NCBI GenBank assembly: GCA_964504195.1
Contig: CAZDDI010000003.1
Span: forward strand, 83,380-147,379
Length of the DNA stretch: 64,000 nt
DNA from: an uncultured Anaerolineales bacterium
Lineage (GTDB): Bacteria; Chloroflexota; Anaerolineae; B4-G1; SLSP01
Direction: 5' to 3'
Numbering within the stretch: the first letter of the stretch is position 1; the number at the start of each line of letters is the position of its first letter. The notes below the pieces were generated by a model. That model saw nothing but the letters and a program-made list of their open reading frames with translations. It made no database searches and was not told the origin of the DNA. Both the position numbers and the translations under genes were made by a program. Shown one piece after another: positions 11,917-31,475 of this stretch.

Positions 11917-12139
11917 GGCTTACTGTATTGGTGCGTGTGCAGGAAAAACTCGTGTCTGAAGCAAAGGGGAGTCCACGGAAAAACCGCCAGCCGCTCACGT
12001 TCAGATGCACAATGCTAAGAAATTTCTGCTTCTAACGGATTCTCTTGAATATCAAAGATGCTGAATGAAGCGGATATTTGTTACTTGTTCACAATTGCAC
12101 CTGTGTTATACTCACGTTACAATTTAATAAGACTGTGCA

Positions 12140-12300
12140 TTTCCGAGTCTCTCTACCTACCGGCCAGTAGCCCAGGGGAGCGAGACCATTGGGTGTAGCG
12201 GGAAACGGCTACGCCTCCCGTATTTGAAAAGGAAGTGCGCCGCAGTGCCATAATACCTTTCCCCTAGGCAACAGCTTCATTGCTTGGGGGCAGGTAGTTA
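12140..12300 (+). ncRNA. Structured 5' leader / riboswitch candidate (possibly cobalamin-type) upstream of the BtuF/FecB-like ABC importer
   Basis: It shows nested helices: CTACCTACC...GGCAGGTAG, GTAGCC...GGCTAC, and a GGGAAAC-loop hairpin. The blocks AAGGAAGUGCG and CAGUGCCAU resemble the E. coli btuB leader. An intrinsic terminator follows just before the RBS. Confidence 0.35.
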
Positions 12301-15005: not shown

Positions 15006-15778
15006 CCCCCGCAGTATCACTCACAGACCTGGCTTTTCGCTATACTCCGACCGCGCCCGATGTGGTGCAAAACATCACCCTGGACTTGCCCTCACGCGCA
15101 GTGACAGCAATTTTAGGCCCTAATGGTTCAGGAAAAACCACGTTGCTGCATCTCATCTTGGGGCTGCTCACGCCACAGCAGGGGCGCATCGCGTTGAATG
15201 GTACACAGCACACCGGCTACGCGCGTCGGGAGGTCAGTCATATTCTGGGATTGGTACCCCAAGAAGAACCGCCAGCGTTCAACTTGAATGTGCTGGAAAC
15301 GGTGCTGTTAGGCCGCGCCCCCTATCTCAAACTGCTCCAGCGGCCCAGCGAACGTGATTACACGACCGCTTTTCGCTCATTAGAGCAGGTCGGCATCGCG
15401 GATTTATGGGCGCGCCCGGTGCCCGCGTTGAGCGGCGGCGAACGACAGTTAGCCGTGTTAGCCCGCGCCTTGACGCAAGAACCGGACATTCTGTTGTTGG
15501 ATGAACCGACTTCACATCTGGACGTGAACAACGCGCGCCAGATTTTAAGCCTCATGCGTGACTTACGAACGCAAGGCAAAACCATTGTCTTTACCACACA
15601 TGATCCTAATGCGGCTGCCGCTACGGCGGATTATGTGGTGCTGATGCGTCAGGGCCGGGTGTTGTATGCCGGCACCGCCCACGAAACTTTGACCGGAGAA
15701 CATCTGAGCGCCACCTATGATGTGCCCATTGAAGTGGTGCGCGATCATCTGGGCCGTTTATTGGTGGTAGTCTATTAA
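15002..15778 (+). CDS. ABC transporter ATP-binding protein (FecE/BtuD-like)
   Basis: Walker A GPNGSGKTTLL, signature LSGGERQ, and Walker B LLLDEPTSHLD. There is a 4-nt overlap with the permease. Confidence 0.85.
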   Translation: MTPAVSLTDLAFRYTPTAPDVVQNITLDLPSRAVTAILGPNGSGKTTLLHLILGLLTPQQGRIALNGTQHTGYARREVSHILGLVPQEEPPAFNLNVLETVLLGRAPYLKLLQRPSERDYTTAFRSLEQVGIADLWARPVPALSGGERQLAVLARALTQEPDILLLDEPTSHLDVNNARQILSLMRDLRTQGKTIVFTTHDPNAAAATADYVVLMRQGRVLYAGTAHETLTGEHLSATYDVPIEVVRDHLGRLLVVVY

Positions 15779-16643: not shown

Positions 16644-17567
16644 CCTGACCTATCACGAAGCGGTGACGTTGTTTGAACAGTGGGGCTTGCAAGTAGCACC
16701 GGGTCCCCGCGCGGGCGAAGTAACCCTGATGTTAGTTGCAGAGGATGCACATACTTATGCCGCCCACCCGCAATACTGCTTACCGCAGATGGCCGCAGTG
16801 ATTTGGGCCGCGCGCTGGCAGAATGGAAGCATCGGTTGTGGGCGGGTTGCCATGTCGGGCATACAGTGTGGTTAATGCGGAAGGAGAGTTACAGCTCAGC
16901 ACAAAAAAACTATTCTGGTTCTATCAAATACCCAATCTACCGATAGCTCTTTTGCGGTGGATTAAAAGACTGTAAAAGTATAATTTCCCGTTATAGCCGT
17001 GTTTTAACGGTAAAATTCGGGAACTTATAAATTTACGAACTTTAAGATGAATGGCCCACAGACATTTCTGGTGACCTAGTGGCGCGGTAAATCATAGTGC
17101 AATTACGCGCTGCGCTGGCATAACAAGCCATGACTTTTTTTGAAGTTGCAACATTAAACTTCATGTTGATTTGTTCTGATGAGGTGTTTTTTGGCAGCCG
17201 CGCTTTCCATAAGCGCGGCTGCTAACGCATTTGAAACATACCCACAACAAATTGGTTTAATGGTTATTAAATTACACCTCTCACATACGAAAAGTGTATT
17301 ATGACATTAGTGTAGTGTATGACGATAGGCTATAATAAACAGAATTTTAACATCTTTTAGTACTTATTGGCGTGGCTAGATCTACCGGCGGATTTCGCCA
17401 TTCCCTGCGCGGTTCCGTCATGGCTCTACCACACCAACAGTAACGCAAATGCGGGTAACTGGCGTCCCTCTCAGAGTCAGCTGCTCAGAGTGGATCCTTA
17501 GATCCACGACCGGTCAAATTTTTAGATTTGCCACTCGTTATTTGTTGTTTTAGGAGGGCCTTAATCC

Positions 17568-17930
17568 ATGAAGAGCTTAGAAGAATTGCGGAAGATAAAA
17601 GAACGGGCGTTGGAGCGGCGACAGCTGGCAGGGGCGGGGGCGCGCGCGCGGGTGACGGTGGCGATGGGCACGTGCGGTATCGCGGCGGGCGCGCGGGACA
17701 CCATGACGGCCATCCTCAACGAGATGGAGAAGCGCCAGCTGACCGATGTGGTGGTCACGCAGACCGGGTGCATGGGCCTGTGCGAGTACGAGCCGCTGGT
17801 GCAGATCCAGGTGGGTGAGGAAGAAGTGGTCACTTACGGCAAAATTGATCCCTCTCGCGTCCCCGACCTCATCGAGGCGCACCTGGTCAAGGGCGAACCG
17901 GTTGCAGCGTGGCAGGTACAGACGCAATAA
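17568..17930 (+). CDS. Small thioredoxin-like [2Fe-2S] ferredoxin-domain protein (HndB/NuoE-N-like), copy 1
   Basis: 120 aa with MGTCGI...TGCMGLCEYEP. A GGAGGG RBS is present. It is 97% identical to 28701-29063. Confidence 0.7.
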   Translation: MKSLEELRKIKERALERRQLAGAGARARVTVAMGTCGIAAGARDTMTAILNEMEKRQLTDVVVTQTGCMGLCEYEPLVQIQVGEEEVVTYGKIDPSRVPDLIEAHLVKGEPVAAWQVQTQ

Positions 17931-18069
17931 GCCCGCGTTTCCATGTGCCATTGGCATACCAACGCTGACGAAAATGTAATGCGAACTATTAGTTCGCAAC
18001 CACGCGAAGCAGACGCTTCGCGCTACGTCAGGCTTGATTTGTGATTTGCAGATTTTTTGAGGAGGTAGT

Positions 18070-19842
18070 ATGGTTTACCGCGCACATGTCTTGATCTGCG
18101 GGGAACCCCGTTGTGTTGAAAAGGGCGCGCGGGATGTTGAGGCGGCGCTGACCCAAAAAATACAGGAGCTGGGCCTGGAAAACGAGGTCCAAATTCTGGA
18201 AGCCAGCGCGCTAGGGCATGGCGAACAAGGCCCGGAACTGGTGGTCTACCCCGAAGGCGTCCATTACGTCAACCTGCGCCCGGAAGACGCCACGCGCATT
18301 GTTGAAGAGCATCTGTTCAAGGGACGCCCCATCGCGGAATTGCAGTACAAAGAACCGCCTTCGGAGCCGCTGCCCGCGCCATCCCACAAAGAAATCCGCG
18401 TGGTGCTGGATAAAATCGGCAAAATTGATCCCGAAAATATTGATGATTACATCGCGCTGGATGGCTATGCCGCGCTGGCGAAAGTGCTGGGCGGGATGTC
18501 CCGCGACGAGGTGCTGGTCGTGCTCAAAACGTCCGGGCTGCGCGGGCGCGGCGGGGCGGGCTTCCCTACCCACCTCAAGTGGAGTTTCGCCAAGAACGCG
18601 CCCGGCGATGTGAAATACGTCATCTGTAACGCTGATGAGGGCGACCCCGGCGCGTTCATGAACCGGCGCGTGCTCGAAGGCGACCCGCACGCCGTCATCG
18701 AAGGTATGGCGATTGCGGCGTATGTCATCGGCGCGCGGCAGGGCTATATCTATGTTCGCGCCGAGTACCCCATCGCCATCAGCACTTTGCGCGTGGCATT
18801 GGCACAGGCCCGCGAGTATGGTCTGCTGGGGGAAAACATCCTCGACACTCATTTTAGTTTCGATCTGGAAATCCGCATGGGCGCGGGGGCCTTCGTCTGT
18901 GGCGAAGAGACCGCGCTGATGAAATCCATCGAAGGCGTGCGGGGGATGCCGACCACCCGCCCGCCCTTCCCGGCCACGTCGGGCCTGTGGGGCAAGCCCT
19001 CCAACATCAACAACGTAGAGACCTACGCCAACGTGCCGCAGATTTTGCTCAAGGGCGGCGCGTGGTTTGCCTCGATGGGCACGGAGAAGAGCAAGGGCAC
19101 CAAGACCTTTGCGGTGGCCGGAAAAGTGGCGCGCACTGGCTTGATCGAAGTGCCGCTGGGCATCACCATTCGCGAAATCGTCTACGATGTGGGCGGCGGT
19201 GTGCTCGATGGCAAGAAGTTCAAGGCCGTGCAGACCGGCGGCCCGATGGGCGGTTGTATCCCAGAGAAGTATCTTGACCTGCCGGTGGATTACGAAAACC
19301 TGGCGGCCGTCGGCTCGATCATGGGTTCGGGCGGCTTCGTCGTGATGGATGAAGAAACCTGTATGGTGGATATCGCTCGCTTCTTCATGGAGTTCACGCA
19401 GGAAGAATCGTGCGGTAAATGTGTGCCGTGCCGCGTGGGCACCCGGCGGATGTTGGAGATTCTCGAACATATCTGCGCGGGCAAGGGCAAGCCCGGTGAT
19501 ATCGAGATGCTGGAAACCCTGGCCGAGAAGATCGGTTTTGGCTCGTTGTGCGGGCTGGGTCAGGGAGCGCCAAATCCGGTGCTCAGCACGCTAGAGCACT
19601 TCCGTGACGAGTACGAGGCACACATCTACGAGAAGCGCTGCCCGGCGAAGGTCTGCAAGGCCCTGATCGAGTACCGCATCGAGGCCGAGACCTGTATCGG
19701 CTGCACACGCTGCGCTCGTAACTGCCCGGTCAACGCCATTAGCGGCAAGGCCAAACAGGTGCATGTGATTGATCCTGAGACCTGCATCCGCTGCGGTATC
19801 TGCGCGCAGGTTTGTCCGGTAGACGCCGTGAAAGTTGAGTGA
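18070..19842 (+). CDS. NuoF-like NAD(P)H-binding flavoprotein subunit (HoxF/HndC/HydB-type) with N-terminal Trx-like domain and C-terminal 2x[4Fe-4S] ferredoxin domain, copy 1
   Basis: The motifs are GRGGAGFPTHLKWSF (NADH/FMN site) and ESCGKCVPCRVG ([4Fe-4S] N3). The C-terminal CIGCTRCARNCP and CIRCGICAQVCP are two ferredoxin motifs. Confidence 0.85.
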   Translation: MVYRAHVLICGEPRCVEKGARDVEAALTQKIQELGLENEVQILEASALGHGEQGPELVVYPEGVHYVNLRPEDATRIVEEHLFKGRPIAELQYKEPPSEPLPAPSHKEIRVVLDKIGKIDPENIDDYIALDGYAALAKVLGGMSRDEVLVVLKTSGLRGRGGAGFPTHLKWSFAKNAPGDVKYVICNADEGDPGAFMNRRVLEGDPHAVIEGMAIAAYVIGARQGYIYVRAEYPIAISTLRVALAQAREYGLLGENILDTHFSFDLEIRMGAGAFVCGEETALMKSIEGVRGMPTTRPPFPATSGLWGKPSNINNVETYANVPQILLKGGAWFASMGTEKSKGTKTFAVAGKVARTGLIEVPLGITIREIVYDVGGGVLDGKKFKAVQTGGPMGGCIPEKYLDLPVDYENLAAVGSIMGSGGFVVMDEETCMVDIARFFMEFTQEESCGKCVPCRVGTRRMLEILEHICAGKGKPGDIEMLETLAEKIGFGSLCGLGQGAPNPVLSTLEHFRDEYEAHIYEKRCPAKVCKALIEYRIEAETCIGCTRCARNCPVNAISGKAKQVHVIDPETCIRCGICAQVCPVDAVKVE

Positions 19843-19854
19843 CAAGGAGGCAGC

Positions 19855-20343
19855 ATGGATAAAGCGTTGACCCAAACGATACATCGGGCGCTCACGCGCC
19901 ACGCTAACAGTCAGGAATCTCTGGTGGAAATGCTGCGCGAGATCAACGCCGAGCTAGGCTATTTGAGTGCGGAGACGTTGGGCGGGTTGGCCGATGCGCT
20001 GAAATTGCCGCGCAGCCAGGTGCTCAGCGTTGCTAGCTTCTACAGTATGCTCGATTTGGAACCGCGCGGGACGCACGTCATCAAGCTGTGCCAGGACGCG
20101 CCGTGCCACGTCGCCGGCGGACAGGAGATTTGGGAGACCCTGGAGCGTGAGTTGGGGATCAGCTTTGGCGCGACTACACCGGATGGCAAATGGACGCTGC
20201 TGACGACCAGCTGCATCGGCGCGTGCGCGGTCGGGCCGGTGATGATGGTGGATGACGACATCTACGGCAATCTCACCCCGGAGCGGGTGCGGGAGATTCT
20301 CGCGCAGGTTGCCGACCAAGACCGGGCAGGAGGTAGAACATGA
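19855..20343 (+). CDS. NuoE-like [2Fe-2S] subunit (HoxE/HndA-type)
   Basis: CQDAPCHVAGG...TTSCIGACAVGPV is the NuoE 2Fe-2S cysteine pattern. A GGAGG RBS is present. Confidence 0.85.
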   Translation: MDKALTQTIHRALTRHANSQESLVEMLREINAELGYLSAETLGGLADALKLPRSQVLSVASFYSMLDLEPRGTHVIKLCQDAPCHVAGGQEIWETLERELGISFGATTPDGKWTLLTTSCIGACAVGPVMMVDDDIYGNLTPERVREILAQVADQDRAGGRT

Positions 20344-21920
20344 TACGCGCGCATGTGTTGATTTCCGGGGATGCGCTGAGCCTCTCGCGCGGCGCAGAGG
20401 AAACCCGGCTTGCCATCGAGGCAGAGCTCTCGTTTCTGGGGCTAGATAAGGAAGTGCTGGTGAGCTACACTAGCCAGGTAGAGCGCACGGATGAGTTGCC
20501 GATGGTGATGGTCTTCCCAGAGGGGATCCGGTATGGCTCAGTTCATCCGGAGGACGGTGCGTACATTGTCCAGGAGCATCTCTACAAAGGGCGTATTGTT
20601 GAACATTTGCGGTTGCCTCCGGAAATACTCTCTGGTCACATTGTACATATACCTGGCAAACTTGGCGCGCTCTACGCGCAGAAGCGCGTGGTCTTGCGCC
20701 GTGCCGGTCTGATTGATCCCACTAGTATTGAAGACTACATCGCCCACGACGGCTACTTTGCGCTGGGCAAAGCCCTCACCGAGATGCAATCGGCTGACGT
20801 GCTGCAAGCGGTAAAAGATTCCGGCTTGCAAGGTCGCGGCGGCGCGGGTTTCCCCACCGGCTTGAAATGGAGCTTCGCAGTGAACCAGCCGGGCGAGAAG
20901 TACATCGTCTGCAACGCGGATGAATCCGAGCCGGGCACGTTCAAGGATCGCCTGATCCTGGAGGGCGACCCGCACGCCGTGTTGGAAGGCATGGCCCTCG
21001 CCGGGTATGCCTGTGGCGCGGCGCAGGGCTGGATTTACATTCGCGGTGAGTATGTGCAGGCGCGCGAACGGCTCGAGCACGCCATCAAGCAGGCGGAAGA
21101 GTACGGGCTGCTGGGCGACAACATCATGGAGACCGGGTTCTCCTTCCACATCCATGTCCACGCGGGCGCGGGCGCGTATGTCTGCGGTGAGGAAACGGCT
21201 CTGCTGGAAAGCCTCGAAGGCAAACGCGGCACGCCGCGCATCCGTCCGCCGTATCCCACAGTGCGCGGTTTTCGCGATCAACCGACGCTGGTCAACAACG
21301 TGGAGACGCTAGCGAATGTGCCGGCCATTATCCTCAACGGGTCGGACTGGTTCCGCTCCATTGGGACGCACACCAGCCCTGGCACCAAGGTCTATACCAT
21401 GCTGGGCGATGTCAACATCACCGGTTTGATCGAAGTGCCGATGGGCATCACTCTCCGCGAAGTCATCGAAATCTACGGCGGCGGCGTGAAGAACGGCAAG
21501 GCCTTCAAGTGCGCGCAGACGGGCGGCGCTTCCGGCAGCATCATCCCGGCAGCGTTGCTGGATGTGCCGATGGATTTTGCTTCGATGCAGGCGCAGGGCG
21601 CGTCCCTGGGCAGCGGTGCGCTTCTGGTGTGTGACGAGGATACCGATGTGGTAGACCTGGCTTATGTGCTGGTGCGCTTCTTTGCAACTGAATCGTGCGG
21701 CAAGTGTGTGCCCTGCCGGGTGGGGTCAGCGCAAATGTTGGAGGCGCTGGAACGGCTGCGCAAGGGCTATGCCAAACCTGCCGATTTGCAGCGGCTTGAA
21801 GAGATTGCCACCCATGTTCAGGAAACCTCATTCTGCGGCCTGGGGCAGGCCGCGCCAGTGCCGATTCTTACCGGGCTACGCTTCTTCCGCGCCGAGTTCG
21901 AGGCCCGCGTACAAGCCTAG
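20340..21920 (+). CDS. Second NuoF-like flavoprotein subunit (no C-terminal ferredoxin domains; degenerate Cys-less N-terminal Trx-like domain)
   Basis: GRGGAGFPTGLKWSF and ESCGKCVPCRVG motifs. ATGA overlap with the upstream gene. Confidence 0.85.
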   Translation: MIRAHVLISGDALSLSRGAEETRLAIEAELSFLGLDKEVLVSYTSQVERTDELPMVMVFPEGIRYGSVHPEDGAYIVQEHLYKGRIVEHLRLPPEILSGHIVHIPGKLGALYAQKRVVLRRAGLIDPTSIEDYIAHDGYFALGKALTEMQSADVLQAVKDSGLQGRGGAGFPTGLKWSFAVNQPGEKYIVCNADESEPGTFKDRLILEGDPHAVLEGMALAGYACGAAQGWIYIRGEYVQARERLEHAIKQAEEYGLLGDNIMETGFSFHIHVHAGAGAYVCGEETALLESLEGKRGTPRIRPPYPTVRGFRDQPTLVNNVETLANVPAIILNGSDWFRSIGTHTSPGTKVYTMLGDVNITGLIEVPMGITLREVIEIYGGGVKNGKAFKCAQTGGASGSIIPAALLDVPMDFASMQAQGASLGSGALLVCDEDTDVVDLAYVLVRFFATESCGKCVPCRVGSAQMLEALERLRKGYAKPADLQRLEEIATHVQETSFCGLGQAAPVPILTGLRFFRAEFEARVQA

Positions 21921-21975
21921 CAGCGCTACCTGAAGCTGCTTCACAGAAGATTTATTTCAAGGAGTGAAGGAACTC

Positions 21976-23673
21976 ATGAGCGAGATACATTTGAACATTA
22001 ACGGGCAGGACGTTGTGGCGCAGAGCGGCCAGACGGTGCTGGAGGCTGCGAAGTCTGCCAGCATTGAGATTCCGGTGCTTTGTCATCATCCGGCGCTCAC
22101 CAACTGGGGCGCATGCCGCATGTGCGTGGTCGAAGTGGAAGGGATGCGCACGGTGCAGACTGCCTGTACGCTTCCGGTGTCCGAGGGTATGAAGGTCACA
22201 ACGCATACCGAAAAAACCACCAGCCTGCGCAAGTTCGTGCTGGAGCTGCTGTTCTCTGAGCGCAACCACTATTGCATGTACTGCCAGATGAGCGGTGATT
22301 GTGAGCTGCAAGATCAGGCTTACGCGCACGGTCTGGATCACTGGACTTATCCGCGCCCTTACGAGAAATTGAGCGTGGATGCGTCACGCAAATACTTCAT
22401 CATGGATCACAATCGCTGTATCCTCTGCTCGCGCTGTGTCCGTGCGTGTAGCGAGGTGGCGGCGAATCACACCCTGAACCTGCGCAATCGCGGGGCCAAG
22501 ACGATGATTGTGGCCGACCTGGATGTGCCGTTTGGCGAATCCAGCTGCGTGGAGTGCGGCTCCTGTTTGCAGGTGTGTCCCACCGGCGCGCTGGTGGATG
22601 CCAAGAGCGCCTACGGTGGGCGCGAGAAGGACGTGACGCACACCATCACGACCTGTATGCAGTGCAGCATTGGCTGTGAGCTGGATGTGGTGACGCGCTA
22701 CAGCCGCCTGCTCCGCGTGGACGGCGTCTGGGGGGCTGACCCCAACGGCGGCCTGCTGTGTGTGGATGGCCGCTTCAAGCCGCTGTACGAAGAGCGCAAG
22801 CGCATCACCGCCCCGATGCTCCGCAAGGATGGCAACCTGGTCGAGGCTTCCTGGGATGAGGCGCTCGCGCTGGTCGCCGAGAAGCTCCAGGGCGGCGAGT
22901 GCCAGGGCCTGGCCGCGTGCGCCACCACCAACGAGGCGTTGGCGGCCTTCGCGCAGCTCATCGCCAAAGTGGGTGGCAAGGCCGGGCGGCTCGAACCGGT
23001 CGCCCCGACGTTGGGCTACGGCACACCCGCCAAAGTTACGGACGTGCTCGACGCCGATTTCATCATCGTGGCCGGGGCGCAACCGCTGGATTACCAGCGC
23101 GTCGTCGGCTACTTCATCCATCGTGCTGCCGACAAGAAAGTGCCGGTCGCGGTCATCAGCGACTCAGAGAACGCCCTCAGCCCGCGCGCAGCTATGACGG
23201 TCGCCTCAGCGCAGGCAGGTGTAGTGGCGCAGGCCGCTGCCGCCGCCGCGAAGGTCGTGCTGGTCTACAGCGTGGGCCTCAAGCCGGAAGTGATTGCCGC
23301 GCTCAAGCCGCTGGGCGACAAAGTCCACTTCCTGGCGCTCGACCCGGCGCGGAATGGCAAGGGGGCGGAAGCTGCAGGTCTCAAGCCGCAAGCCCCAAGC
23401 AAAGTGGATGTGGGATATTTCCTGTTGGGTGAACAACTGCTGGATGAGACGCTCCAGCCGAAGGCGGGCTTCAAGGTGGTGCAGGCTGCGTACTTCTCGC
23501 CGCTGGCGGAGCAGGCCGATGTGGTGCTGCCCACGCCGATTTGGTCGGAGCGTAGCGGGCACATCACCAATCTCGATGGGACGGTCAAGCCGTTGAATGT
23601 GGTGTTGCCCGCGCCCGCCGGCGTCCGCGACGAGGTGGAAGTCCTGGCGCAGCTGGCCGCACTGTTGGCATAA
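21976..23673 (+). CDS. NuoG/HoxU-like FeS subunit (N-terminal 2Fe-2S + 4Fe-4S domains, truncated molybdopterin-oxidoreductase-like C-terminus lacking a catalytic domain)
   Basis: The N-terminus is INGQDV...CHHPALTNWGACRMCVVEV, a 2Fe-2S ferredoxin-type sequence. A His(Cys)3 cluster follows, then CxxCxxC ferredoxin motifs and CMQCSIGC (the MopB N-terminal 4Fe-4S). Confidence 0.8.
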   Translation: MSEIHLNINGQDVVAQSGQTVLEAAKSASIEIPVLCHHPALTNWGACRMCVVEVEGMRTVQTACTLPVSEGMKVTTHTEKTTSLRKFVLELLFSERNHYCMYCQMSGDCELQDQAYAHGLDHWTYPRPYEKLSVDASRKYFIMDHNRCILCSRCVRACSEVAANHTLNLRNRGAKTMIVADLDVPFGESSCVECGSCLQVCPTGALVDAKSAYGGREKDVTHTITTCMQCSIGCELDVVTRYSRLLRVDGVWGADPNGGLLCVDGRFKPLYEERKRITAPMLRKDGNLVEASWDEALALVAEKLQGGECQGLAACATTNEALAAFAQLIAKVGGKAGRLEPVAPTLGYGTPAKVTDVLDADFIIVAGAQPLDYQRVVGYFIHRAADKKVPVAVISDSENALSPRAAMTVASAQAGVVAQAAAAAAKVVLVYSVGLKPEVIAALKPLGDKVHFLALDPARNGKGAEAAGLKPQAPSKVDVGYFLLGEQLLDETLQPKAGFKVVQAAYFSPLAEQADVVLPTPIWSERSGHITNLDGTVKPLNVVLPAPAGVRDEVEVLAQLAALLA

Positions 23674-23683
23674 GGAGTCACGC

Positions 23684-24238
23684 ATGGGTAAAATTAAAGT
23701 TGCAACGGGGTGGTTGGAGTCGTGCGCCGGCTGCCACATGTCGTTTTTGGATATTGACGAGCGCATTGTCGAGTTCTTTAAGCACGTCGAGCTGACCTCT
23801 TCGCCGATTACCGATCTGAAACACCCGCCCATAGAGGGCGTGGATGTGGGCATCCTCACCGGCGGTATCGGCAATGAGGATCAGATTCACGAGGCCAAAG
23901 AGATGCGCGAGCGGAGCAAAATCCTCATCGCGCTGGGCGATTGCGCGGTCACGGGCGGTATCTGTACCATGCGCAACTTCTTCCCCCTGGAAGAGGTGCT
24001 GCGGCGCGGGTACATCGAGACCGAGAGCACGGTGGATGGCGAGATTCCGGCACACGAGGATCTAGCCGTGTTGACAGACCAGGTCAGCGGCATAGATGAG
24101 GTTGTGCCGGTAGACATCTATCTGCCCGGCTGCCCGCCCACCGCCGACGCGATCTGGTTTGTGTTGACCGAATTGTTGGAGGGCCGGATGCCGAAGTTGG
24201 AAGGCAAGGTCCTGAAGTATGGTATGGATGGGGGGTAA
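23684..24238 (+). CDS. hoxY: [NiFe]-hydrogenase small subunit, HoxY-type (group 3)
   Basis: MGKIKVATGWLESCAGCHMSF...LGDCAVTGGI...LPGCPPTADAI is the short NuoB-like small subunit typical of bidirectional hydrogenases. Confidence 0.8.
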   Translation: MGKIKVATGWLESCAGCHMSFLDIDERIVEFFKHVELTSSPITDLKHPPIEGVDVGILTGGIGNEDQIHEAKEMRERSKILIALGDCAVTGGICTMRNFFPLEEVLRRGYIETESTVDGEIPAHEDLAVLTDQVSGIDEVVPVDIYLPGCPPTADAIWFVLTELLEGRMPKLEGKVLKYGMDGG

Positions 24239-24246
24239 AACATAGT

Positions 24247-25671
24247 ATGGCTGAGAAAATTACCATTTCACCCGTGACCCGTATCGAGGGCCACGCGAAA
24301 ATCACGATCTACGTTGGCGATGACGGGAAGGTGACGGATTCGTACTTCCATGTGGAACAGTTCCGGGGCTTCGAGAAGTTCAGCGAAGGCCGCATGTTCT
24401 ACGAAATGCCCCAGATCACGCCGCGCACCTGCGGCATCTGCCCGGTGAGCCATCACCTGGCTTCGACCAAAGCTTGTGACGTGATCGCCGGCACCGCGCC
24501 GACGCCCACCGCGCACAAGCTGCGCGATCTGATGCACATGGGGCAGATGATCCAGTCGCACGGGATGCACTTCTTCGAGCTGGCCGGCCCGGACTTCATC
24601 ATGGGCTTCGACGCCGACCCGAAGGTGCGCCATGTGGGCGGCGTCATCGGCGTGAACCCTGATCTGGCCGTGAAGGCGGTCAAGTTGCGCGCCTTCGGGC
24701 AGGAGATCATCCGCAAGCTGGGCGAGCGGCGCGTGCATCCGATCTTCGGCGTGCCGGGCGGGGTGACCCGCCCGCTCGATCCCGCCGACCGCGAGTGGAT
24801 TTTGCGCGAGGTGGACAATCACATCGCCACGACGATGGTGGGCATCTCGTTCCTCAAGAGCTGGATGCAGGATAACCACCAGATGATGGAGGAGTTCGCC
24901 GTGTTCCCCTCGGCCTACATGGGGCTGGTGCAGCCGGATGGCGCGCTGGAGCTCTATGATGGGCAGCTGAAGATGGTGGACGCGGACGGTTCATTCCTGG
25001 AGCAGTTCGATCCGGCGGACTACCTGGACTACATCGCCGAGCACGTCAATCCCTATACCTATCTCAAGGCCCCGTACTACAAAAAGCGTGGCTACGAGAA
25101 GGGCATCTATCGCGTTGGCCCGCTGGGGCGGTTGAACGTCGCCACCCACATTAACACGCCGATGGCGCAGAGCGAGATGCGGCTGTGGAAGCAGCTCAAC
25201 GGCGGTAAGCCCGTCGAGGGGACGCTGTACTTCCACTACGCGCGGCTCATCGAGACGGTGTATGCTCTGGAGCATGTGAAGGGGCTGATGGATGATCCCG
25301 ACATCCTGGGGACGGATGTGGTGGCCCCGCCCGGACACATCACCGGCGAGGGCGTGGGTGTGCTCGAGGCGCCGCGCGGTACGCTCTTCCATCACTACTG
25401 GACCGACAGCAATGGCGTAATCCAAAAGGTGAACATGATCGTCGCCACCGCCGGCAACGCCTGGGCGATGAACCACTCAGTCAACATGGCCGCCAAGCGC
25501 TATGTTGACGGCACGCAGCTCACCGAGGGGATGCTCAACCGCGTTGAGCACGCCATCCGCGCGCATGACCCGTGCCTCTCCTGCTCGACCCACGCGATAG
25601 GGCAGATGCCTATCCAGATCGAGCTCATCGGGTCAGATGGAGCTGTGCTGGATGTGTTGAAGCGGGATTAG
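24247..25671 (+). CDS. hoxH: [NiFe]-hydrogenase large subunit, HoxH-type, with cleavable C-terminal extension
   Basis: The N-terminal motif is RTCGICPVSHHLAS and the C-terminal motif is DPCLSCSTHAIGQMPIQ... The tail after His is the substrate of the maturation protease. Confidence 0.85.
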   Translation: MAEKITISPVTRIEGHAKITIYVGDDGKVTDSYFHVEQFRGFEKFSEGRMFYEMPQITPRTCGICPVSHHLASTKACDVIAGTAPTPTAHKLRDLMHMGQMIQSHGMHFFELAGPDFIMGFDADPKVRHVGGVIGVNPDLAVKAVKLRAFGQEIIRKLGERRVHPIFGVPGGVTRPLDPADREWILREVDNHIATTMVGISFLKSWMQDNHQMMEEFAVFPSAYMGLVQPDGALELYDGQLKMVDADGSFLEQFDPADYLDYIAEHVNPYTYLKAPYYKKRGYEKGIYRVGPLGRLNVATHINTPMAQSEMRLWKQLNGGKPVEGTLYFHYARLIETVYALEHVKGLMDDPDILGTDVVAPPGHITGEGVGVLEAPRGTLFHHYWTDSNGVIQKVNMIVATAGNAWAMNHSVNMAAKRYVDGTQLTEGMLNRVEHAIRAHDPCLSCSTHAIGQMPIQIELIGSDGAVLDVLKRD

Positions 25672-25778
25672 CTTTTACAAATTCCACGCGAAGCCTTGGC
25701 GGACTGAGTCTACCAGGGCTTTTGCTTTTCCAATTTAGTGATATACAATGCGCTACAGGCGAAAGTAAGGGGAGTAAT

Positions 25779-26870
25779 ATGCGCTTAAGCAAAATCTCTG
25801 TAGAAGGTTTCAAATCTCTCCAGGAAGTTAAGGACTTAAAACTGCGCAATCTTAATGTGCTTATCGGTGCAAATGGTGCAGGAAAGAGCAATTTTATTGC
25901 GCTATTTAGGCTTCTCAACCAGATGGTAAGCGGCAACTTCCAAACAGCGGTGCTGCAGCAGGGCGGAGCAAATGCGTTACTATACCTGGGTGAAAAAACC
26001 ACGCCACAAATCACCGTGCAATTAGATTTTGAGCGCAACGCTTATTATTGCGTTTGGATCCCCACTGTAGATGAACGTCTCATTTTTGCGAAGGAAACAT
26101 GCATATTCTATGGTGATCGCGTACCACAATGGGAGAAACAATTAGGAAGCGGCCATCTGGAAAGCCGGTTGCCCCAAGCCGCTCAGGAAACCAAAGAACC
26201 TGTGCTGGATTATGTTTTGCAGGGTTTGAATGCCTGGAAGGTCTATCACTTCCACGATACCAGTGACAGTGCCCTGGTTAAAAAGAGCCGTGCTCTGAAT
26301 GACAATCTATACTTGCGGCCTGATGCTGCTAATCTGGCGGCTTTTCTCTACAGGCTACAACAAAGCGCGCCTCAATATTATGCAGCTATTCGGGAGACAG
26401 TACAGCTGGTGTTCCCAGTTTTTGATGATTTCCTGCTGCGCCCGCAGCCGGAAAATGAAAATCTGATTCGGCTCGAGTGGCGCGAGCAAGGCTCAGATTA
26501 TCCATTCATGGCCTACCATTTATCCGATGGTACGTTACGTTTCATCTGTCTGGCAACTTTATTGTTACAACCGGAACTACCCCCTACCATCCTGATTGAT
26601 GAACCGGAATTGGGATTGCATCCTTATGCCATAGAAGTTTTAGCCTCGCTAATGCGCAGCGCGGCAGAGCGCACCCAATTGATTGTCGCCACGCAGTCAG
26701 TCACACTGGTCAACCATTTTACGCTGGAAGATATACTCGTTGTGGAAAACCGCAAGCGAGCAACAACGATAGAACGGTTAGACTCGGAACAGCTGAGCGA
26801 TTGGTTGGAGGATTACGCACTCGGCGAACTATGGGAAAAGAACGTCTTTGGCGGGAGGCCAACTCGATGA
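25779..26870 (+). CDS. ABC/AAA-type ATPase of the OLD/AAA_21 (SMC-like) family; candidate defense ATPase
   Basis: N-terminal Walker A NVLIGANGAGKSNF. A C-terminal Walker B/D-loop region ILIDEPELGLHP. Low GC relative to its flanks. ATGA overlap with the downstream gene. Confidence 0.75.
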   Translation: MRLSKISVEGFKSLQEVKDLKLRNLNVLIGANGAGKSNFIALFRLLNQMVSGNFQTAVLQQGGANALLYLGEKTTPQITVQLDFERNAYYCVWIPTVDERLIFAKETCIFYGDRVPQWEKQLGSGHLESRLPQAAQETKEPVLDYVLQGLNAWKVYHFHDTSDSALVKKSRALNDNLYLRPDAANLAAFLYRLQQSAPQYYAAIRETVQLVFPVFDDFLLRPQPENENLIRLEWREQGSDYPFMAYHLSDGTLRFICLATLLLQPELPPTILIDEPELGLHPYAIEVLASLMRSAAERTQLIVATQSVTLVNHFTLEDILVVENRKRATTIERLDSEQLSDWLEDYALGELWEKNVFGGRPTR

Positions 26871-27553
26871 GCGACAGTTATGCGCGCGTGAACATCATCG
26901 TTGAAGGCCATACCGAAGAAACATTCGTGCGTGATGTGTTGACGGAGCCATTGGCAGCGCAGCACGTGTTCATCACAGCTCGCCGCGTGGAAACGGGACG
27001 TTCTTCCAGGCAGATTTATCGCGGCGGCATGACCACTTATGCCAAGGCCCGCCGCGATATCATGCGCTGGTTGGCTCAAGATCGTCAAGCATATGTCACT
27101 ACCATGTTCGACCTTTACCGAATCCCACTGGATTTCCCCGATGTGCGCTTAATTCCACCAGGCATTGAACCTTACGCCAGAATTACAGCATTGGAGAAGG
27201 CATTGGAGGCTGATATCGGCATTGAGCGGTTCATCCCCTACCTGCAATTACACGAATTCGAAAACCTACTGTTCAGTGATGTGCAAGCAATTGATACAGT
27301 ATTGGGATTAAGACGCTCTCAACTACAGGCATTACAAGCCCTTCGCGAAGAGTTTACCTCACCGGAGTTGATTGATGATGGGGAGGACACGGCACCCTCC
27401 AAAAGGTTGCAGAAGCTCTACGAAGGATACGATAAATTGGCTTTCGGGCCGCGCATCGCAACCCATATTGGACTGGCAAAACTGCGCCAGGAGTGTCCTC
27501 ATTTCAATGCCTGGTTTTCTAGATTGGAAAATCTGCAATTTAGTAACCTTTAG
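26867..27553 (+). CDS. DUF4276-like small protein with Toprim-like N-terminal motif (candidate nuclease partner of the ATPase)
   Basis: The start VNIIVEGHTEETFVRDVL resembles the conserved Toprim IVEG-x-TE acidic motif. About 228 aa. Translationally coupled to the ATPase. Low GC. Confidence 0.6.
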   Translation: MSDSYARVNIIVEGHTEETFVRDVLTEPLAAQHVFITARRVETGRSSRQIYRGGMTTYAKARRDIMRWLAQDRQAYVTTMFDLYRIPLDFPDVRLIPPGIEPYARITALEKALEADIGIERFIPYLQLHEFENLLFSDVQAIDTVLGLRRSQLQALQALREEFTSPELIDDGEDTAPSKRLQKLYEGYDKLAFGPRIATHIGLAKLRQECPHFNAWFSRLENLQFSNL

Positions 27554-27558
27554 AAGCT

Positions 27559-28068
27559 ATGAACCACGCACGACGCATTCTCATCGTAGGATTCGGCAAT
27601 CAGTACCGGCGGGATGACGGCGTTGGGCCGTATGTGATCAATCTGGTGCGCGCGGCGCTGGCCCGTTCGCCTTTCGATCCGCTTGATGATGGCTTCGACA
27701 CGCTGGGTGAAACGGTGGATACCATCGTGCTGCATCAACTCGTGCCGGAGCTGGCGGAGACCTTCAAGGATTACGATCAGCTGATCTTCGTGGATGCGCA
27801 TGTGGGCGACCTGCCCGAACCCATCCGCGAGGAGCGGCTCGATGCGGCGTACACGCAGCCCTTCGTCTCGCATCAATTCCACCCCTCGACGGTGCTGGCG
27901 CTGACGCAACAGCTCTACGGGCGCGCGCCGCAGACTGTGCTGCTCTCTATTCGTGGGCACGATTTCGACTTCGGCGAGGGACTTTCGCCCGAAACTGAGG
28001 CCCTCGCGCAGGAAGTCGCGGCGCGGATTATACAGAGTATCACGGATTCTGCTTTCCCCGCACGTTGA
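27559..28068 (+). CDS. hoxW: Hydrogenase maturation endopeptidase (HoxW/HycI/HybD family)
   Basis: ILIVGFGNQYRRDDGVGPYV is the GNxxxxDDGxG motif. VDAH gives the Glu/Asp/His metal ligands. About 169 aa. Confidence 0.8.
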   Translation: MNHARRILIVGFGNQYRRDDGVGPYVINLVRAALARSPFDPLDDGFDTLGETVDTIVLHQLVPELAETFKDYDQLIFVDAHVGDLPEPIREERLDAAYTQPFVSHQFHPSTVLALTQQLYGRAPQTVLLSIRGHDFDFGEGLSPETEALAQEVAARIIQSITDSAFPAR

Positions 28069-28700
28069 AGTAGAACTGCCTCGTGCAAGTCCCCCGCGCC
28101 CCCGTGAAAAACACAGGAGCGCGCTTTTTTGCCCCCCACGCTCTTCGCGTATCATGCTTGCTCAATCCCTCAAGGTGGATGTCTTAACGACATCATTCAA
28201 GTTGCCACCCGCACTTTTGACCACAGTCGGCTGACAACGGACGACCTTTGGAATGTAAAACGTGGTCTGTCATCACTGGTCGGTGGTCTACGTCTAGAAA
28301 GTAACAATTTGGTTTAACATATCCACACTCGGTCATTCAAAACGGAATTTGGCAAGGCATTGGTATGACCTTTGCAAGGTTTAACTGTATCGGTGGAATA
28401 ATGTCACTATGCCGTTAGGTGAGATTGCGGTATAATGAACGGTGGTATTTTGTAAGCGGGAAAGCAGGTATTGGAAATGAAGCGAGACGACATCTTGCAC
28501 GCCTTAGCTCAATTTCAAGAGCTAACCCAGGTCGAATTTGGCATCACGCACAGTCGAGATTTTTAGCCACGAATCACACGAATTTTACGAACTTAGCTGA
28601 TGTTTTCGCGTTAATTTGTGAAATTCGTGGCAAATTCTGGAAAATGTCGGTAGTGAATTCGTAACTTGTCATTTGTAATCTTACAGGAGGAACTTAGTCC

Positions 28701-29063
28701 ATGAAGAGCTTAGAAGAACTACGGAAGATCAAAGAACGGGCGTTGGAGCGTCGGCAGCTGGCCGGGGCGGGGGCGCGCGCACGGGTGACGGTGGCGATGG
28801 GCACGTGCGGTATCGCTGCGGGCGCGCGGGACACCATGACGGCCATCCTCAATGAGATGGAGAAGCGTCAACTCAGCGATGTGGTGGTCACACAGACCGG
28901 ATGCATGGGCCTGTGCGAGTATGAGCCGCTGGTGCAGATCCAGGTAGGTGAGGAAGAAGTGGTCACTTACGGCAAAATTGATCCCTCTCGCGTTCCCGAA
29001 CTCATCGAGGCGCACCTGGTCAAGGGCGAACCGGTTGCAGCGTGGCAGGTGCAAACTGCCTAG
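28701..29063 (+). CDS. Small thioredoxin-like [2Fe-2S] ferredoxin-domain protein, copy 2
   Basis: 117/120 aa identical to 17568-17930. Confidence 0.7.
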   Translation: MKSLEELRKIKERALERRQLAGAGARARVTVAMGTCGIAAGARDTMTAILNEMEKRQLSDVVVTQTGCMGLCEYEPLVQIQVGEEEVVTYGKIDPSRVPELIEAHLVKGEPVAAWQVQTA

Positions 29064-29202
29064 AGCGCAGGGCGCGCGTGAGCATTCATCCGGTACAGCC
29101 CTGATGATGGGAATAGCAGCCTGAGAGCGAACTAAAGTTCGCGTTATGTTTGCTACATTGATTTGTGATCCGCTGATTTGCAGATTTTCTTGAGGAGGTA
29201 TT

Positions 29203-30975
29203 ATGGTTTACCGCGCACATGTCTTGATCTGCGGGGAACCCCGCTGTGTCGAAAAGGGCGCGCGGGACGTCGAGGCGGCGCTGACCCAAAAAATACAGGA
29301 ACTGGGCCTGGAAAACGAGGTCCAAATTCTGGAGGCCAGCGCGCTGGGGCATGGCGACCAAGGGCCGGAGCTGGTCATCTACCCCGAAGGCGTCCATTAC
29401 GTCAACGTGCGTCCGGAAGATGCGGCGCGCATTGCTGAGGAGCATCTGCTCAAAGGGCGTCCCATCGCGGAATTGCAGTACAAAGAGCCGCCGAGCGAAC
29501 CGTTGCCTGCGCCTTCTGTCAAAGAAATTCGCGTGGTGCTGGGCAAAATCGGCAAAATTGACCCGGAAAACATTGAGGATTACATCGCGCTGGATGGCTA
29601 CGCCGCACTGGCGAAGGTGTTGGGCGGCATGTCCCCCGATGATGTGCTGGCCGAGCTTAAAACATCCGGGCTGCGTGGCCGTGGTGGTGCGGGTTTCCCC
29701 ACGCACCTCAAGTGGAGCTTCGCCAAGAATGCACCCGGCGATGTGAAATACGTCATCTGTAACGCTGATGAGGGTGACCCCGGTGCGTTTATGAACCGGC
29801 GTGTGCTCGAAGGCGACCCGCACGCCGTCATCGAGGGGATGGCGATTGCGGCGTATGTCATCGGCGCGCGGCAGGGCTACATTTACGTCCGTGCCGAGTA
29901 CCCCATCGCTATCAGCACCTTGCGCGTGGCGCTGGCGCAGGCCCGCGAGTATGGGTTGCTGGGAGAGAACATCCTCGGTACCGATTTCAGCTTTGACCTG
30001 GAAATCCGCATGGGGGCCGGCGCCTTCGTCTGTGGTGAAGAGACCGCGCTGATGCAATCTATCGAAGGCGCGCGCGGGATGCCCACCACGCGCCCCCCGT
30101 TCCCCGCCACCAAGGGTTTGTGGGGCAAGCCTTCCAACATCAATAACGTGGAGACCTACGCCAATGTCCCGCAGATTTTGCTCAAGGGCGGTGCGTGGTT
30201 CGCCTCGATGGGTACGGAGAAAAGCAAGGGCACCAAGACCTTCGCCATTGCGGGGAAAGTGGAACGCACCGGGCTGGTGGAAGTGCCGTTGGGGATGACC
30301 ATCCGCGAAATCGTCTATGATGTGGGCGGTGGCGTGCTCGATGGCAAAAAGTTCAAGGCCGTGCAGACCGGCGGGCCGATGGGTGGTTGTATTCCGGAGA
30401 AGTACCTGGATTTGCCTGTGGATTACGAGAATCTTGCCGCAGTGGGTTCTATGATGGGGTCGGGCGGTTTTGTCGTGATGGACGAAGAAACCTGTATGGT
30501 GGACATCGCCCGCTTCTTCATGGAGTTCACGCAGGATGAGTCGTGCGGCAAGTGTGTGCCGTGTCGCATCGGTACGCGGCGGATGCTGGAGATTCTCAAC
30601 GATATTTGCGCGGGCAAGGGCAAGTCGGGTGATATCGAGATGCTGGAACAGTTGAGCCGCTATATCAACAAAGGCTCGTTGTGCGGCCTGGGTCAGGGTG
30701 CGCCGAACCCCGTGCTCAGTACGTTGGAACACTTCCGCGATGAGTATGAGGCGCACATCTTCGAGAAGCGCTGCCCGGCGAAAGTTTGCAAGGCCCTGAT
30801 CGAGTACAAGATCGAGCCGGACGCCTGTATCGGCTGCACGCGCTGCGCGCGCAACTGCCCGGTCAACGCCATTGCGGGTTCGCCCAAGCAAGTGCATGTG
30901 ATTGACCCTGAGACGTGCATCCGCTGTGGCATCTGCAAGCAGGTCTGCCCGGTCAACGCGGTCTACATCGAGTAG
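29203..30975 (+). CDS. NuoF-like flavoprotein subunit with C-terminal 2x[4Fe-4S] domain, copy 2 (FDH-associated)
   Basis: About 93% aa identical to 18070-19842 and has the same motifs. Confidence 0.85.
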   Translation: MVYRAHVLICGEPRCVEKGARDVEAALTQKIQELGLENEVQILEASALGHGDQGPELVIYPEGVHYVNVRPEDAARIAEEHLLKGRPIAELQYKEPPSEPLPAPSVKEIRVVLGKIGKIDPENIEDYIALDGYAALAKVLGGMSPDDVLAELKTSGLRGRGGAGFPTHLKWSFAKNAPGDVKYVICNADEGDPGAFMNRRVLEGDPHAVIEGMAIAAYVIGARQGYIYVRAEYPIAISTLRVALAQAREYGLLGENILGTDFSFDLEIRMGAGAFVCGEETALMQSIEGARGMPTTRPPFPATKGLWGKPSNINNVETYANVPQILLKGGAWFASMGTEKSKGTKTFAIAGKVERTGLVEVPLGMTIREIVYDVGGGVLDGKKFKAVQTGGPMGGCIPEKYLDLPVDYENLAAVGSMMGSGGFVVMDEETCMVDIARFFMEFTQDESCGKCVPCRIGTRRMLEILNDICAGKGKSGDIEMLEQLSRYINKGSLCGLGQGAPNPVLSTLEHFRDEYEAHIFEKRCPAKVCKALIEYKIEPDACIGCTRCARNCPVNAIAGSPKQVHVIDPETCIRCGICKQVCPVNAVYIE

Positions 30976-30995
30976 CCGAGATTGCGAGGGATAGG

Positions 30996-31475
30996 ATGAC
31001 AATGAATACAACTTTGATGGACACTGTTTTTGAGCGTTACGGGAGCGATGCAGAAGCGCTGGTCGAAATCCTCCGTGATCTGAACCAGGCTGAGGGCTAC
31101 CTCTCCCAAGAACTGATGATAGCCGTAGCTGACCGGCTGCGCTTGCCGCGCGGTCATGTGTTTAGTGTGGCTTCGTTCTATAGTATGATGAATGTAAAAC
31201 CGCGTGGGCAGCATGTGGTGCTGATGTGCCAGGATGCGCCCTGTCATATAGCTGGCGGGCGCGAGGTCTGGGACGCGCTGGAAGAGACACTGGGCATCGC
31301 CTTTGGCGAGACCTCGCCCGATGGCAAGTGGACGCTGGAAGTCGCCAGCTGCCTGGGTCTGTGCGCGGTTGGCCCGGTGGTGCAGATTGATGGTGAAGTG
31401 TACGGCAATATGACCCCAGACAAGGTGCGGGCATTGCTGGTGCGCTTCGATGGGGATGCAGGAGGTGCAGCATGA
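30996..31475 (+). CDS. NuoE-like [2Fe-2S] subunit (paralog of 19855-20343)
   Basis: CQDAPCHIAGG...ASCLGLCAVGPV. About 55% identical to the hydrogenase-operon paralog. Confidence 0.8.
   Translation: MTMNTTLMDTVFERYGSDAEALVEILRDLNQAEGYLSQELMIAVADRLRLPRGHVFSVASFYSMMNVKPRGQHVVLMCQDAPCHIAGGREVWDALEETLGIAFGETSPDGKWTLEVASCLGLCAVGPVVQIDGEVYGNMTPDKVRALLVRFDGDAGGAA

Follow-up and report, generated by a model that had tools for sequence, protein, structure and literature searches.

Partial sequence exchange between the ferredoxin-flavoprotein heads of a hydrogenase operon and a formate dehydrogenase operon in an uncultured Anaerolineales bacterium

The 64,000-nucleotide (nt) stretch of contig CAZDDI010000003.1 (assembly GCA_964504195.1) of an uncultured Anaerolineales bacterium, hereafter the window, contains two operons of the same direction, 11.1 kb apart, both of which are headed by a gene for a small ferredoxin (Fd) and a gene for a 590-amino-acid flavoprotein (Table 1). 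The first operon is of the [NiFe] hydrogenase type, with a NuoG-like gene and the genes of the small and large subunits, and the second encodes a formate dehydrogenase (FDH); their heads are referred to as copy 1 and copy 2, respectively. Quartet analysis and sequence identities support an exchange of sequence between the two operon fronts, as the initial annotation had proposed, but over a tract that does not fill the 2.3 kb assigned to it. Taken as a whole, the observations are probably best explained by ectopic recombination of the heads, by their derivation from one truncated template, and by an intercistronic RNA hairpin located between the two head genes.

Similarity of the two heads

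The flavoprotein possesses a thioredoxin-like N-terminus, a NuoF core formed by the flavin mononucleotide (FMN)/NADH-binding and N3-cluster domains (PF01512 at 2.8e-48, PF10589 at 2.3e-35), and a C-terminal 2x[4Fe-4S] domain (Fer4 and Fer4_21 at residues 536-588). It aligns over its full length with 7t2r_B (NiFe-HydB, E = 4.5e-250), the alignment extending to residue 587. Its named homologues are labelled Anaerolineae, Anaerolineales or Chloroflexota. Homologues of the Fd include the N-terminal domain of NfnB/HydB and Aquifex Fd4.

The two Fd share 117 of 120 residues (93.8% nt identity) and the two flavoproteins 92.2% of theirs (85.9% nt identity), close to the 93% first estimated. The downstream NuoE and NuoF paralogues, at 54% and 73% amino-acid identity, are in line with the 55-70% of the initial annotation. 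What had been described as a discrete 2.3-kb repeat is, however, returned by blastn as a single block of 4.4 kb (17533-21910 versus 28664-33045, 79% identity). The repeat comprises the entire four-gene front and the N-terminus of the catalytic subunits, with an uneven divergence, and the sequences upstream of 17533 and 28664 are unrelated (36-49% in alignment).

The heads are well supported as assembled. Three independent assemblies (ENA ERZ27252295, of 89 kb, ENA ERZ27252296 and JGI 3300033178) are 100% identical to the window over 14-22 kb, all database contigs carrying this sequence being metagenome assemblies. One locus, L081, whose parent contig is 89 kb long, extends from the 3' part of the copy 1 flavoprotein gene through the inter-head region and the whole of copy 2. 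Furthermore, the copies differ at 6-14% of their bases, and a difference of 14% makes a collapse in assembly impossible, while both open reading frames (ORFs) are intact and under purifying selection. All this speaks against a chimeric join or a mis-assembled repeat, which is exceedingly improbable as the origin of the duplication.

Evidence for sequence exchange

The relatives used for comparison comprise five loci of the hydrogenase type (L088, L089, L094, L140 and L141) and three of the FDH type (L084, L085 and L092). L088 comes from assembly GCA_964508025.1 and L089 from GCA_015657915.1. NuoE and NuoF of the window hydrogenase operon share 87% and 89% of their residues with those of L088, and the corresponding FDH-operon proteins share 78% and 84% with those of L084 (78-84% over the FDH-operon genes compared), against ~55% and ~73% between the hydrogenase and FDH paralogues. 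The heads follow another pattern. The hydrogenase subunits of L088 and of the window are 90-96% identical, but their Fd only 70% and their flavoproteins 82%. Within the window, the two Fd are 98% and the two flavoproteins 92% identical, and neither exceeds 85% to any relative compared. The proportion of synonymous differences between the two Fd genes (pS) is 0.23, versus at least 0.56 against any relative compared.

The same contrast is observed site by site. Informative sites were counted in the quartet formed by copy 1, copy 2, L088 and L084, and are given as sites grouping the two window copies (concerted), sites grouping by operon type, and others. The counts are 26:2:2 for Fd and then, along the flavoprotein gene, 31:10:3 (codons 1-150), 14:11:2 (150-300), 7:5:11 (300-450) and 11:18:6 (450-590), followed by 4:79:10 for NuoE and 31:136:20 for NuoF. 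This switch of topology along the locus points to ectopic gene conversion or segmental replacement. Comparison with 120 database homologues of the flavoprotein yields a parallel gradient: over codons 1-150 the two copies are 92% identical and the best other homologue reaches 74%; over codons 151-400 these values are 96% and 92%; over codons 401-590 the copies share 87.4%, as compared to 89% between copy 1 and hydrogenase-type orthologues. These comparisons show the copy 1 flavoprotein gene to be a mosaic, with a 5' part homogenised with copy 2 and a 3' third native to the hydrogenase operon.

A history without any exchange, in which an ancient duplication was followed by very strong purifying selection on the head, would fit the 72-84% identity of the flavoprotein among its 120 Anaerolineae homologues and the low ratio of nonsynonymous to synonymous divergence (dN/dS) of the head (0.03-0.08). 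Yet the Fd and the N-terminal domain of the flavoprotein evolve fast between species (58-80% nt identity, dN 0.2-0.35) and are nonetheless 92-98% identical between the window copies. Moreover, synonymous divergence is halved in the tract only, and not between species, and the two copies have derived features in common, namely a truncation and an expanded spacer. Such a history is very improbable.

Extent and age of the exchanged tract

At four-fold degenerate sites, the two copies differ more and more from the 5' end of the head onward: 0.20 in Fd, 0.21 in codons 1-80 of the flavoprotein gene, 0.29 in codons 81-150 and 0.36-0.42 in codons 151-590, to be compared with 0.43 in NuoE and 0.53, 0.34 and 0.53 in three successive segments of NuoF. 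The in-genome saturation baseline for such sites is 0.58. A maximum chi-square breakpoint is located at flavoprotein codon ~70 (0.19 to its left versus 0.39 to its right, permutation p = 0.011). Between species, these same four-fold sites differ at 0.40-0.56, which rules out synonymous-site constraint as the cause of the low divergence of the tract. The clearly homogenised tract thus extends from about 17533 to 18300-18520, roughly the first 1 kb, with a weaker and older signal reaching ~19270. Three quarters of the flavoprotein gene, on the other hand, are not below the NuoE/NuoF divergence at neutral sites, and the elevated identity that the initial annotation had set in advance as its test is not found there. 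The 3' third of the gene was not homogenised, and its high identity reflects purifying selection, as its dN/dS is 0.08 and its orthologues across Anaerolineae are 72-84% identical.

The tract also looks older than the term "recent", initially applied to the duplication, would imply. Its four-fold divergence of 0.20 is about half that to the closest known relative, the window organism and L088 differing by 0.32-0.40 at the same class of sites; in absolute terms, the tract is not recent. One recent event, duplication or conversion, that took in the full 2.3-kb Fd-flavoprotein unit up to the flavoprotein stop codon would account for the sharp fall of nt identity (from 75-88% to 41-54%) where the flavoprotein gene gives way to NuoE, and for a protein identity of 92% before this junction versus 54-73% beyond it. 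This fall is nevertheless explained by protein constraint, with a dN/dS of 0.08 for the flavoprotein versus 0.23-0.27 for NuoE/NuoF. Codons 151-590 are as diverged at four-fold sites as NuoE and fall within the range of NuoF, the concerted quartet signal is gone past codon ~300, and codons 401-590 of copy 1 are nearer to orthologues of other species than to copy 2. An event covering the whole unit is therefore markedly unlikely, and exchange confined to the 5' part of the head is preferred.

To note, the NuoF paralogues display a central stretch (20922-21021 versus 32057-32156) of 91% nt identity. Codons 151-450 of this gene show a four-fold divergence of 0.34, against 0.53 in the flanks, and the quartets there still favour grouping by operon type. 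An older micro-conversion may have produced this stretch, or it may just be the conserved FMN/NADH site.

Gene order in relatives and the truncated head

A metagenome search with the Fd alignment, in which a coiled-coil-like pattern occurs among the matches listed, left about six close loci usable. A genome-contig search with the flavoprotein alignment detected universal NuoF motifs and was of no use as a test of orthology, the matches listed including relatives of 52-62% only. One candidate for a closer relative, an 86%-identical fragment (P0116), was set aside, as its contig comprises neither the 5' end nor the spacer.

In every recovered locus that includes the region upstream of Fd, and for both operon types, the gene order is uniform: a NuoE-like gene (~169 amino acids), a HATPase_c-only gene (~190 amino acids), Fd, the flavoprotein, NuoE, NuoF and the catalytic genes. 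CBS-HATPase, DRTGG and PHP genes usually lie ahead of this block. Since the same order is found in hydrogenase-type and FDH-type relatives, the presence of the head in front of both operon types is old and widespread. Both window heads, by contrast, lack the two genes that precede Fd in every relative sampled. No relics of NuoE, HATPase, PHP, DRTGG or CBS genes were detected upstream of either head by tblastn or with hidden Markov models built from 17-43 relatives (best score -0.8 bits). Likewise, no homologue of the ~169-residue NuoE, the BfuC partner, precedes either head within the window, and it could lie outside the window; the only NuoE-like genes found in the two operons are those paired with the second NuoF. 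The Fd-flavoprotein spacer is 139 nt long in both window copies, versus 8-68 nt in relatives, and L094-L096 have no such spacer. The shared truncation and the expanded 139-nt spacer suggest a single truncated template as the origin of both heads. In comparison with L088 and L084, synteny reveals rearranged surroundings at both operons, which are not reducible to a simple path.

A distinct arrangement is found in L094, where a second NuoE/NuoF pair (L094:16740-18283) follows the hydrogenase genes directly, without a Fd/flavoprotein head of its own, and the contig ends there. It suggests that some lineages run two enzymes off a single head.

Proposed history of the heads

The starting point would be two anciently diverged paralogous operons, each with a ferredoxin, a BfuB/HydB-type flavoprotein, a NuoE/NuoF pair and a NuoG-type catalytic subunit. 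We infer that ectopic homologous recombination, either gene conversion or segmental replacement, brought a copy of the 5' part of the head from one operon into the other, so that both heads would stem from one truncated template. The copied tract would comprise ~35 nt upstream of Fd, Fd, the spacer and the first ~70-150 flavoprotein codons, with a weaker or older part reaching to ~codon 400. Its right-hand junction would lie inside the flavoprotein gene, where homology exists. Since copying, the two versions would have diverged to ~0.2 differences per four-fold site, and the rest of the flavoprotein gene would have stayed alike as the protein evolves slowly everywhere.

Several observations weigh against this history. 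The left junction, ~35 nt upstream of Fd, has no detectable homology beyond it, which calls either for a conversion and later deletions that occurred independently, or for a replacement or rearrangement of which one end was illegitimate; the missing upstream genes of the two loci are not accounted for by simple conversion. The spacer, although located in the youngest tract, has diverged much further than the four-fold sites on either side of it, which implies either two separate tracts or a rapid turnover of insertions and deletions (indels). The heads of the relatives are not cleanly sorted by type: the hydrogenase head of L088 is closest to the FDH head of L092, and the window Fd is closest to the hydrogenase-type Fd of L089; the outgroup heads may themselves have been homogenised. 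The signals of the donor conflict, as the N-terminal flavoprotein domain is nearest to the FDH-type protein P0002 and Fd to hydrogenase-type L089. Finally, among the relatives recovered no genome carries both operons on one contig, and the direction of copying and the species tree are drawn from single loci.

A further reading, to which little probability is given, holds that homogenisation is kept by selection, the Fd and the N-terminal thioredoxin-like domain forming a portable adaptor whose form would have to be the same in both enzymes. The hydrogenase and the FDH could then dock to one partner, for example a single-copy BfuC/HATPase pair located elsewhere or, alternatively, to each other in a soluble formate-hydrogen-lyase-like assembly. 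The hairpins and GATTT leaders described below would be cis-elements of a post-transcriptional programme shared by hydrogen and formate genes.

A small family of intercistronic hairpins

The two palindromes that the initial annotation had placed between Fd and the flavoprotein gene are present, GCGAACTATTAGTTCGC at 17981-17997 and GCGAACTAAAGTTCGC at 29127-29142, and are the sole matches to their pattern in the window, with 0.00 expected from shuffles. In copy 1 the palindrome forms hairpin H1a and is followed by a second hairpin, H1b. Based on a global alignment of the spacers, H1b is probably the positional homologue of the copy 2 palindrome (H2), copy 1 harboring an extra tandem hairpin. 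The 8-bp stem of H1b is identical to that of a fourth hairpin (8031-8050), which sits after a second [NiFe] hydrogenase gene pair (5637-7885). The four hairpins are perfect and intergenic, and are all located in hydrogenase or FDH loci. H1a folds at -9.9 kcal/mol (z = -4.9) and the H1a-H1b tandem at -23.9 kcal/mol (z = -5.0), the z-scores across the hairpins ranging from -2.6 to -5.0.

In the alignment of the four hairpins, 96.9% of the cells pair, and compensatory changes on both sides occur at three of the eight pairs. The covariation score is 0.417, versus 0.178 in shuffles, a value reached by 3 of 500 shuffles, and the pairing collapses once the partners are slid by one column. The loops, of 3-4 nt, vary in length and sequence. 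Outside the palindrome and the last ~45 nt, the two spacers resemble each other no better than shuffles do. Compensatory changes and variable loops favour a transcribed stem-loop over an operator of fixed spacing. Between the operator and the RNA hairpin that had been offered as alternatives, the evidence hence leans to the latter.

In Chloroflexi, a LexA box of the Gram-positive type has been reported. An operator in the DNA, bound by a dimeric regulator and being either a LexA-type CGAAC-N4-GTTCG box or the site of a dedicated hydrogen/formate regulator, would agree with the copy 2 palindrome, an exact match to CGAACNNNNGTTCG and the only perfect one in the window, and with the location of all four members in non-coding spacers of hydrogenase or FDH loci. 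However, the spacing between the arms varies (3, 4 and 4 nt) and the inner stem positions change in a compensatory manner rather than being fixed. Copy 1, with its 5-nt (N5) spacing, fails the LexA pattern even when one mismatch is tolerated. The sites are within transcription units, where they precede an internal gene by 70-90 nt and have no convincing promoter near them, and an SOS box in a redox operon has no physiological rationale. An operator is quite unlikely.

The transcribed hairpin may act as a partial terminator or as a stabiliser of the 3' end, thereby uncoupling the expression of Fd from that of the downstream genes; this role is held tentatively, with slightly less than even confidence. 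Several features weaken it: the family has four members, the stems are modest (-8 to -13 kcal/mol), and neither H1a nor H1b has a U-tract after it. A terminator scan flags copy 2 on the + strand (tail GUUAUGUUUG) and copy 1 on the - strand only, the terminator signals being weak, and the counts of the promoter and terminator scans are not above those of shuffles. A search of both leaders and spacers against Rfam 15 retrieved no family, with sub-threshold chance hits only. Hairpins can be drawn in the spacers of L084, L088, L089 and L092, but the fold z-scores (-0.3 to -1.4 for L084, L088 and L089) are not significant.

The main rival to a hairpin role is a small dispersed repeat of the repetitive extragenic palindromic (REP) kind, which would have expanded the spacers to 139 nt and have no dedicated function. 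The same 8-bp stem is indeed found at 8031-8050 in an unrelated spacer, copy 1 has two tandem hairpins versus one in copy 2, and the element is missing from the relatives, whose spacers are much shorter. Against this, the 64 kb contain just four copies, another 10 kb from this genome contains no more, and each of the four belongs to a hydrogenase or FDH locus. A gene for a RAYT-type (REP-associated tyrosine) transposase was not seen, although no search aimed at RAYT was made. A REP-like origin is unlikely, and the terminator or stabiliser role is retained.

GATTT-repeat leaders

The last ~45 nt before the two flavoprotein starts are near-identical save for a 7-nt indel. They contain three to four tandem 8-nt units of the type GATTT(G/T)NN, directly 5' of the Shine-Dalgarno sequence. 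The near-identity reported just upstream of the flavoprotein start is thus real, but it is not specific to the heads, as the same motif precedes unrelated genes. In the window it has five matches, versus 0.00 expected, the others being found before an M50-like peptidase gene, before a gene of the tyrosine-phosphatase family and ~65 nt upstream of an aminotransferase ORF; a further 10 kb of the same genome contains no GATTT leader. Since the motif is also found before unrelated genes, the conservation of the leader between the copies is due to a general leader motif of the lineage as much as to shared descent. The repeats may represent a lineage-specific translation-initiation or leader motif. 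Relatives harbor other T-rich tandem repeats of 7-8 nt just 5' of the Shine-Dalgarno sequence of Fd (Table 1), so that the feature seems general in the clade and its sequence not conserved.

Comparison with known systems

Interlocus gene conversion between bacterial paralogues is documented, with the RF1 and RF2 genes as an example (PMC4530459). As in such cases, the window paralogues are nearer to each other than to their orthologues over a bounded tract, with a phylogenetic switch at the boundary and less synonymous divergence inside. In contrast to the usual cases, the tract encompasses two genes and a spacer, heads two functionally different operons, ends within a gene to yield a mosaic flavoprotein, and coincides with the loss of upstream genes at both loci, at variance with simple conversion. 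The tufA/tufB pair is another example of interlocus conversion and concerted evolution in bacteria. The phenomenon itself is ordinary ectopic recombination or segmental replacement between paralogues. What the window adds is a flavoprotein gene of mosaic structure, a head that is truncated in both operons and the small hairpin family, none of which is categorically new.

The encoded enzymes belong to the Bfu/HydABC group, with electron bifurcation as a putative activity. The Bfu family of electron-bifurcating enzymes is illustrated by NiFe-HydABCSL of Acetomicrobium mobile (PDB 7t2r and 7t30; PMC8880783) and includes Fdh-Bfu types (PMC9304861). The window flavoprotein resembles HydB of this complex by its full-length alignment and its C-terminal 2x[4Fe-4S] domain, and the operons encode, like Bfu enzymes, NuoE-like, NuoG-like and NiFe small and large subunits, or a pterin FdhA. 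Unlike these enzymes, each operon has a second NuoF-like protein (526 or 553 amino acids, without ferredoxin domain) with its own NuoE, as well as a free-standing 120-residue ferredoxin. This double-flavoprotein layout is unusual as compared to Bfu/HydABC, yet common in Anaerolineae. The window differs from the sampled relatives in having no NuoE-like gene before its BfuB-type gene.

In Caldanaerobacter subterraneus (Thermoanaerobacter tengcongensis), the genes of the tetrameric NADH-dependent [FeFe] hydrogenase follow the order hydC, HK-like, hydD, hydB and hydA. The relatives of the window follow the same order, with NuoE-like, HATPase_c-only, small thioredoxin-like Fd and HydB-like flavoprotein. 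Here, however, an additional NuoE/NuoF pair and a catalytic unit, NiFe or FDH, come after the module, and the window keeps the Fd and HydB-like half only.

Intercistronic stem-loops or REP elements set differential mRNA stability or partial termination at malE-malF and in the Rhodobacter puf operon. The window hairpins are likewise GC-rich, with conserved stems and variable loops, and are located between the gene of a small, presumably abundant subunit and the downstream genes. They differ by their short stems (6-8 bp), their number of four and the lack of a U-tract after the copy 1 hairpins.

It follows that NuoF/HydB-type genes in such operons can be mosaics, and that whole-gene trees or flavoprotein-based typing of the operons can mislead. 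As a natural variant, this genome also has a BfuB-type flavoprotein and a small ferredoxin, without the usual NuoE-like and HATPase_c genes next to them, before both a NiFe hydrogenase and a FDH, and is a useful comparison for asking what the head module contributes.

Table 1. Coordinates of operon genes, hairpins and leader repeats (window positions unless a relative's locus is named)
Feature	Position	Strand	Remark
Left homology edge and Shine-Dalgarno leader of Fd, copy 1	17533-17567	+	counterpart 28664-28700; start of the blastn block
Fd, copy 1	17568-17930	+	120 amino acids; thioredoxin-like [2Fe-2S] ferredoxin, HydD-like; PF01257 partial match
Fd-flavoprotein spacer, copy 1	17931-18069	+	139 nt
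Flavoprotein, copy 1	18070-19842	+	590 amino acids; BfuB/HydB type; Pfam, 7t2r_B match
NuoE-like, operon 1	19855-20343	+	
NuoF-like, operon 1	20340-21920	+	
NuoG/HoxU-like subunit, operon 1	21964-23673	+	
NiFe small subunit, operon 1	23684-24238	+	
NiFe large subunit, operon 1	24247-25671	+	
Leader and Fd, copy 2	28664-29063	+	ORF 28701-29063, 120 amino acids
Fd-flavoprotein spacer, copy 2	29064-29202	+	139 nt; contains H2 and a GATTT-repeat leader
Flavoprotein, copy 2	29203-30975	+	590 amino acids; identical to database protein P0001
NuoE-like, operon 2	31002-31475	+	
NuoF-like, operon 2	31472-33133	+	
Formate dehydrogenase alpha subunit, operon 2	33168-35897	+	TIGR01591, 850 bits (cut-off 666)
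Hairpin H1a (noted palindrome of copy 1)	17980-17998	+	TGCGAACT-ATT-AGTTCGCA; RNA UGCGAACU-AUU-AGUUCGCA
Hairpin H1b	18003-18022	+	CGCGAAGC-AGAC-GCTTCGCG; also written CGCGAAGC-AGAC-GCUUCGCG
Hairpin H2 (copy 2)	29127-29142	+	GCGAAC-TAAA-GTTCGC; RNA GCGAAC-UAAA-GUUCGC
Hairpin, fourth family member	8031-8050	+	CGCGAAGC-CGCC-GCTTCGCG, also written CGCGAAGC-CGCC-GCUUCGCG; then CUAUAUCUAUUUUC
GATTT(G/T)NN leader and Shine-Dalgarno, flavoprotein copy 1	18036-18066	+	repeats 18036-18056
GATTT leader, flavoprotein copy 2	29160-29198	+	repeats 29160-29188
GATTT leader, M50-like peptidase gene	4506-4530	+	
GATTT leader, tyrosine-phosphatase-family gene	36681-36708	+	
GATTT motif, aminotransferase ORF	1385-1366	-	
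Leader repeats of a relative	L094:7830-7931		(ATTACTC)n
Leader repeats of a relative	L095:100-177		AATTTCT units
Leader repeats of a relative	L088:9440-9521		GACTTGTGACT units
Leader repeats of a relative	L092:1150-1232		GATTTG units

Neighbouring features

The second [NiFe] hydrogenase small and large subunit pair (5637-7885), 10 kb upstream, is distantly related to the subunits of operon 1 (28-31% identity). Between both operons lies a candidate defence pair, HEC-01A (E = 2e-150) and HEC-01B (E = 5e-77), at 25779-27553. Its G+C content is 0.50-0.54, versus ~0.60 in the flanking operons, and the close relative L088 does not have it after its hydrogenase genes.

A molybdenum/tungsten cofactor (Moco) riboswitch (12132-12250, 63.8 bits) is located upstream of a transporter operon (12437-15778) with Peripla_BP_2, FecCD and ABC_tran domains. 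The transporter is a type II importer, unlike ModABC; it may be of the MolABC-like kind and supply molybdate/tungstate for the formate dehydrogenase encoded nearby. A perfect 12-bp hairpin (GCAGCCGCGCTT-TCCAT-AAGCGCGGCTGC, 17194-17222) within the 620 nt of non-coding DNA before operon 1 is probably the terminator of the preceding gene.

Finally, positions 59844-60157 harbor two tandem units of ~160 nt that match no Rfam family, each with CGTAAGGAA direct repeats, a TATAAT-like box and a short predicted transcript. This transcript exhibits an exposed UUCUCCUCCUUCU stretch, resembling an anti-Shine-Dalgarno sequence, and a strong terminator hairpin, and the units are candidate duplicated small regulatory RNA genes.

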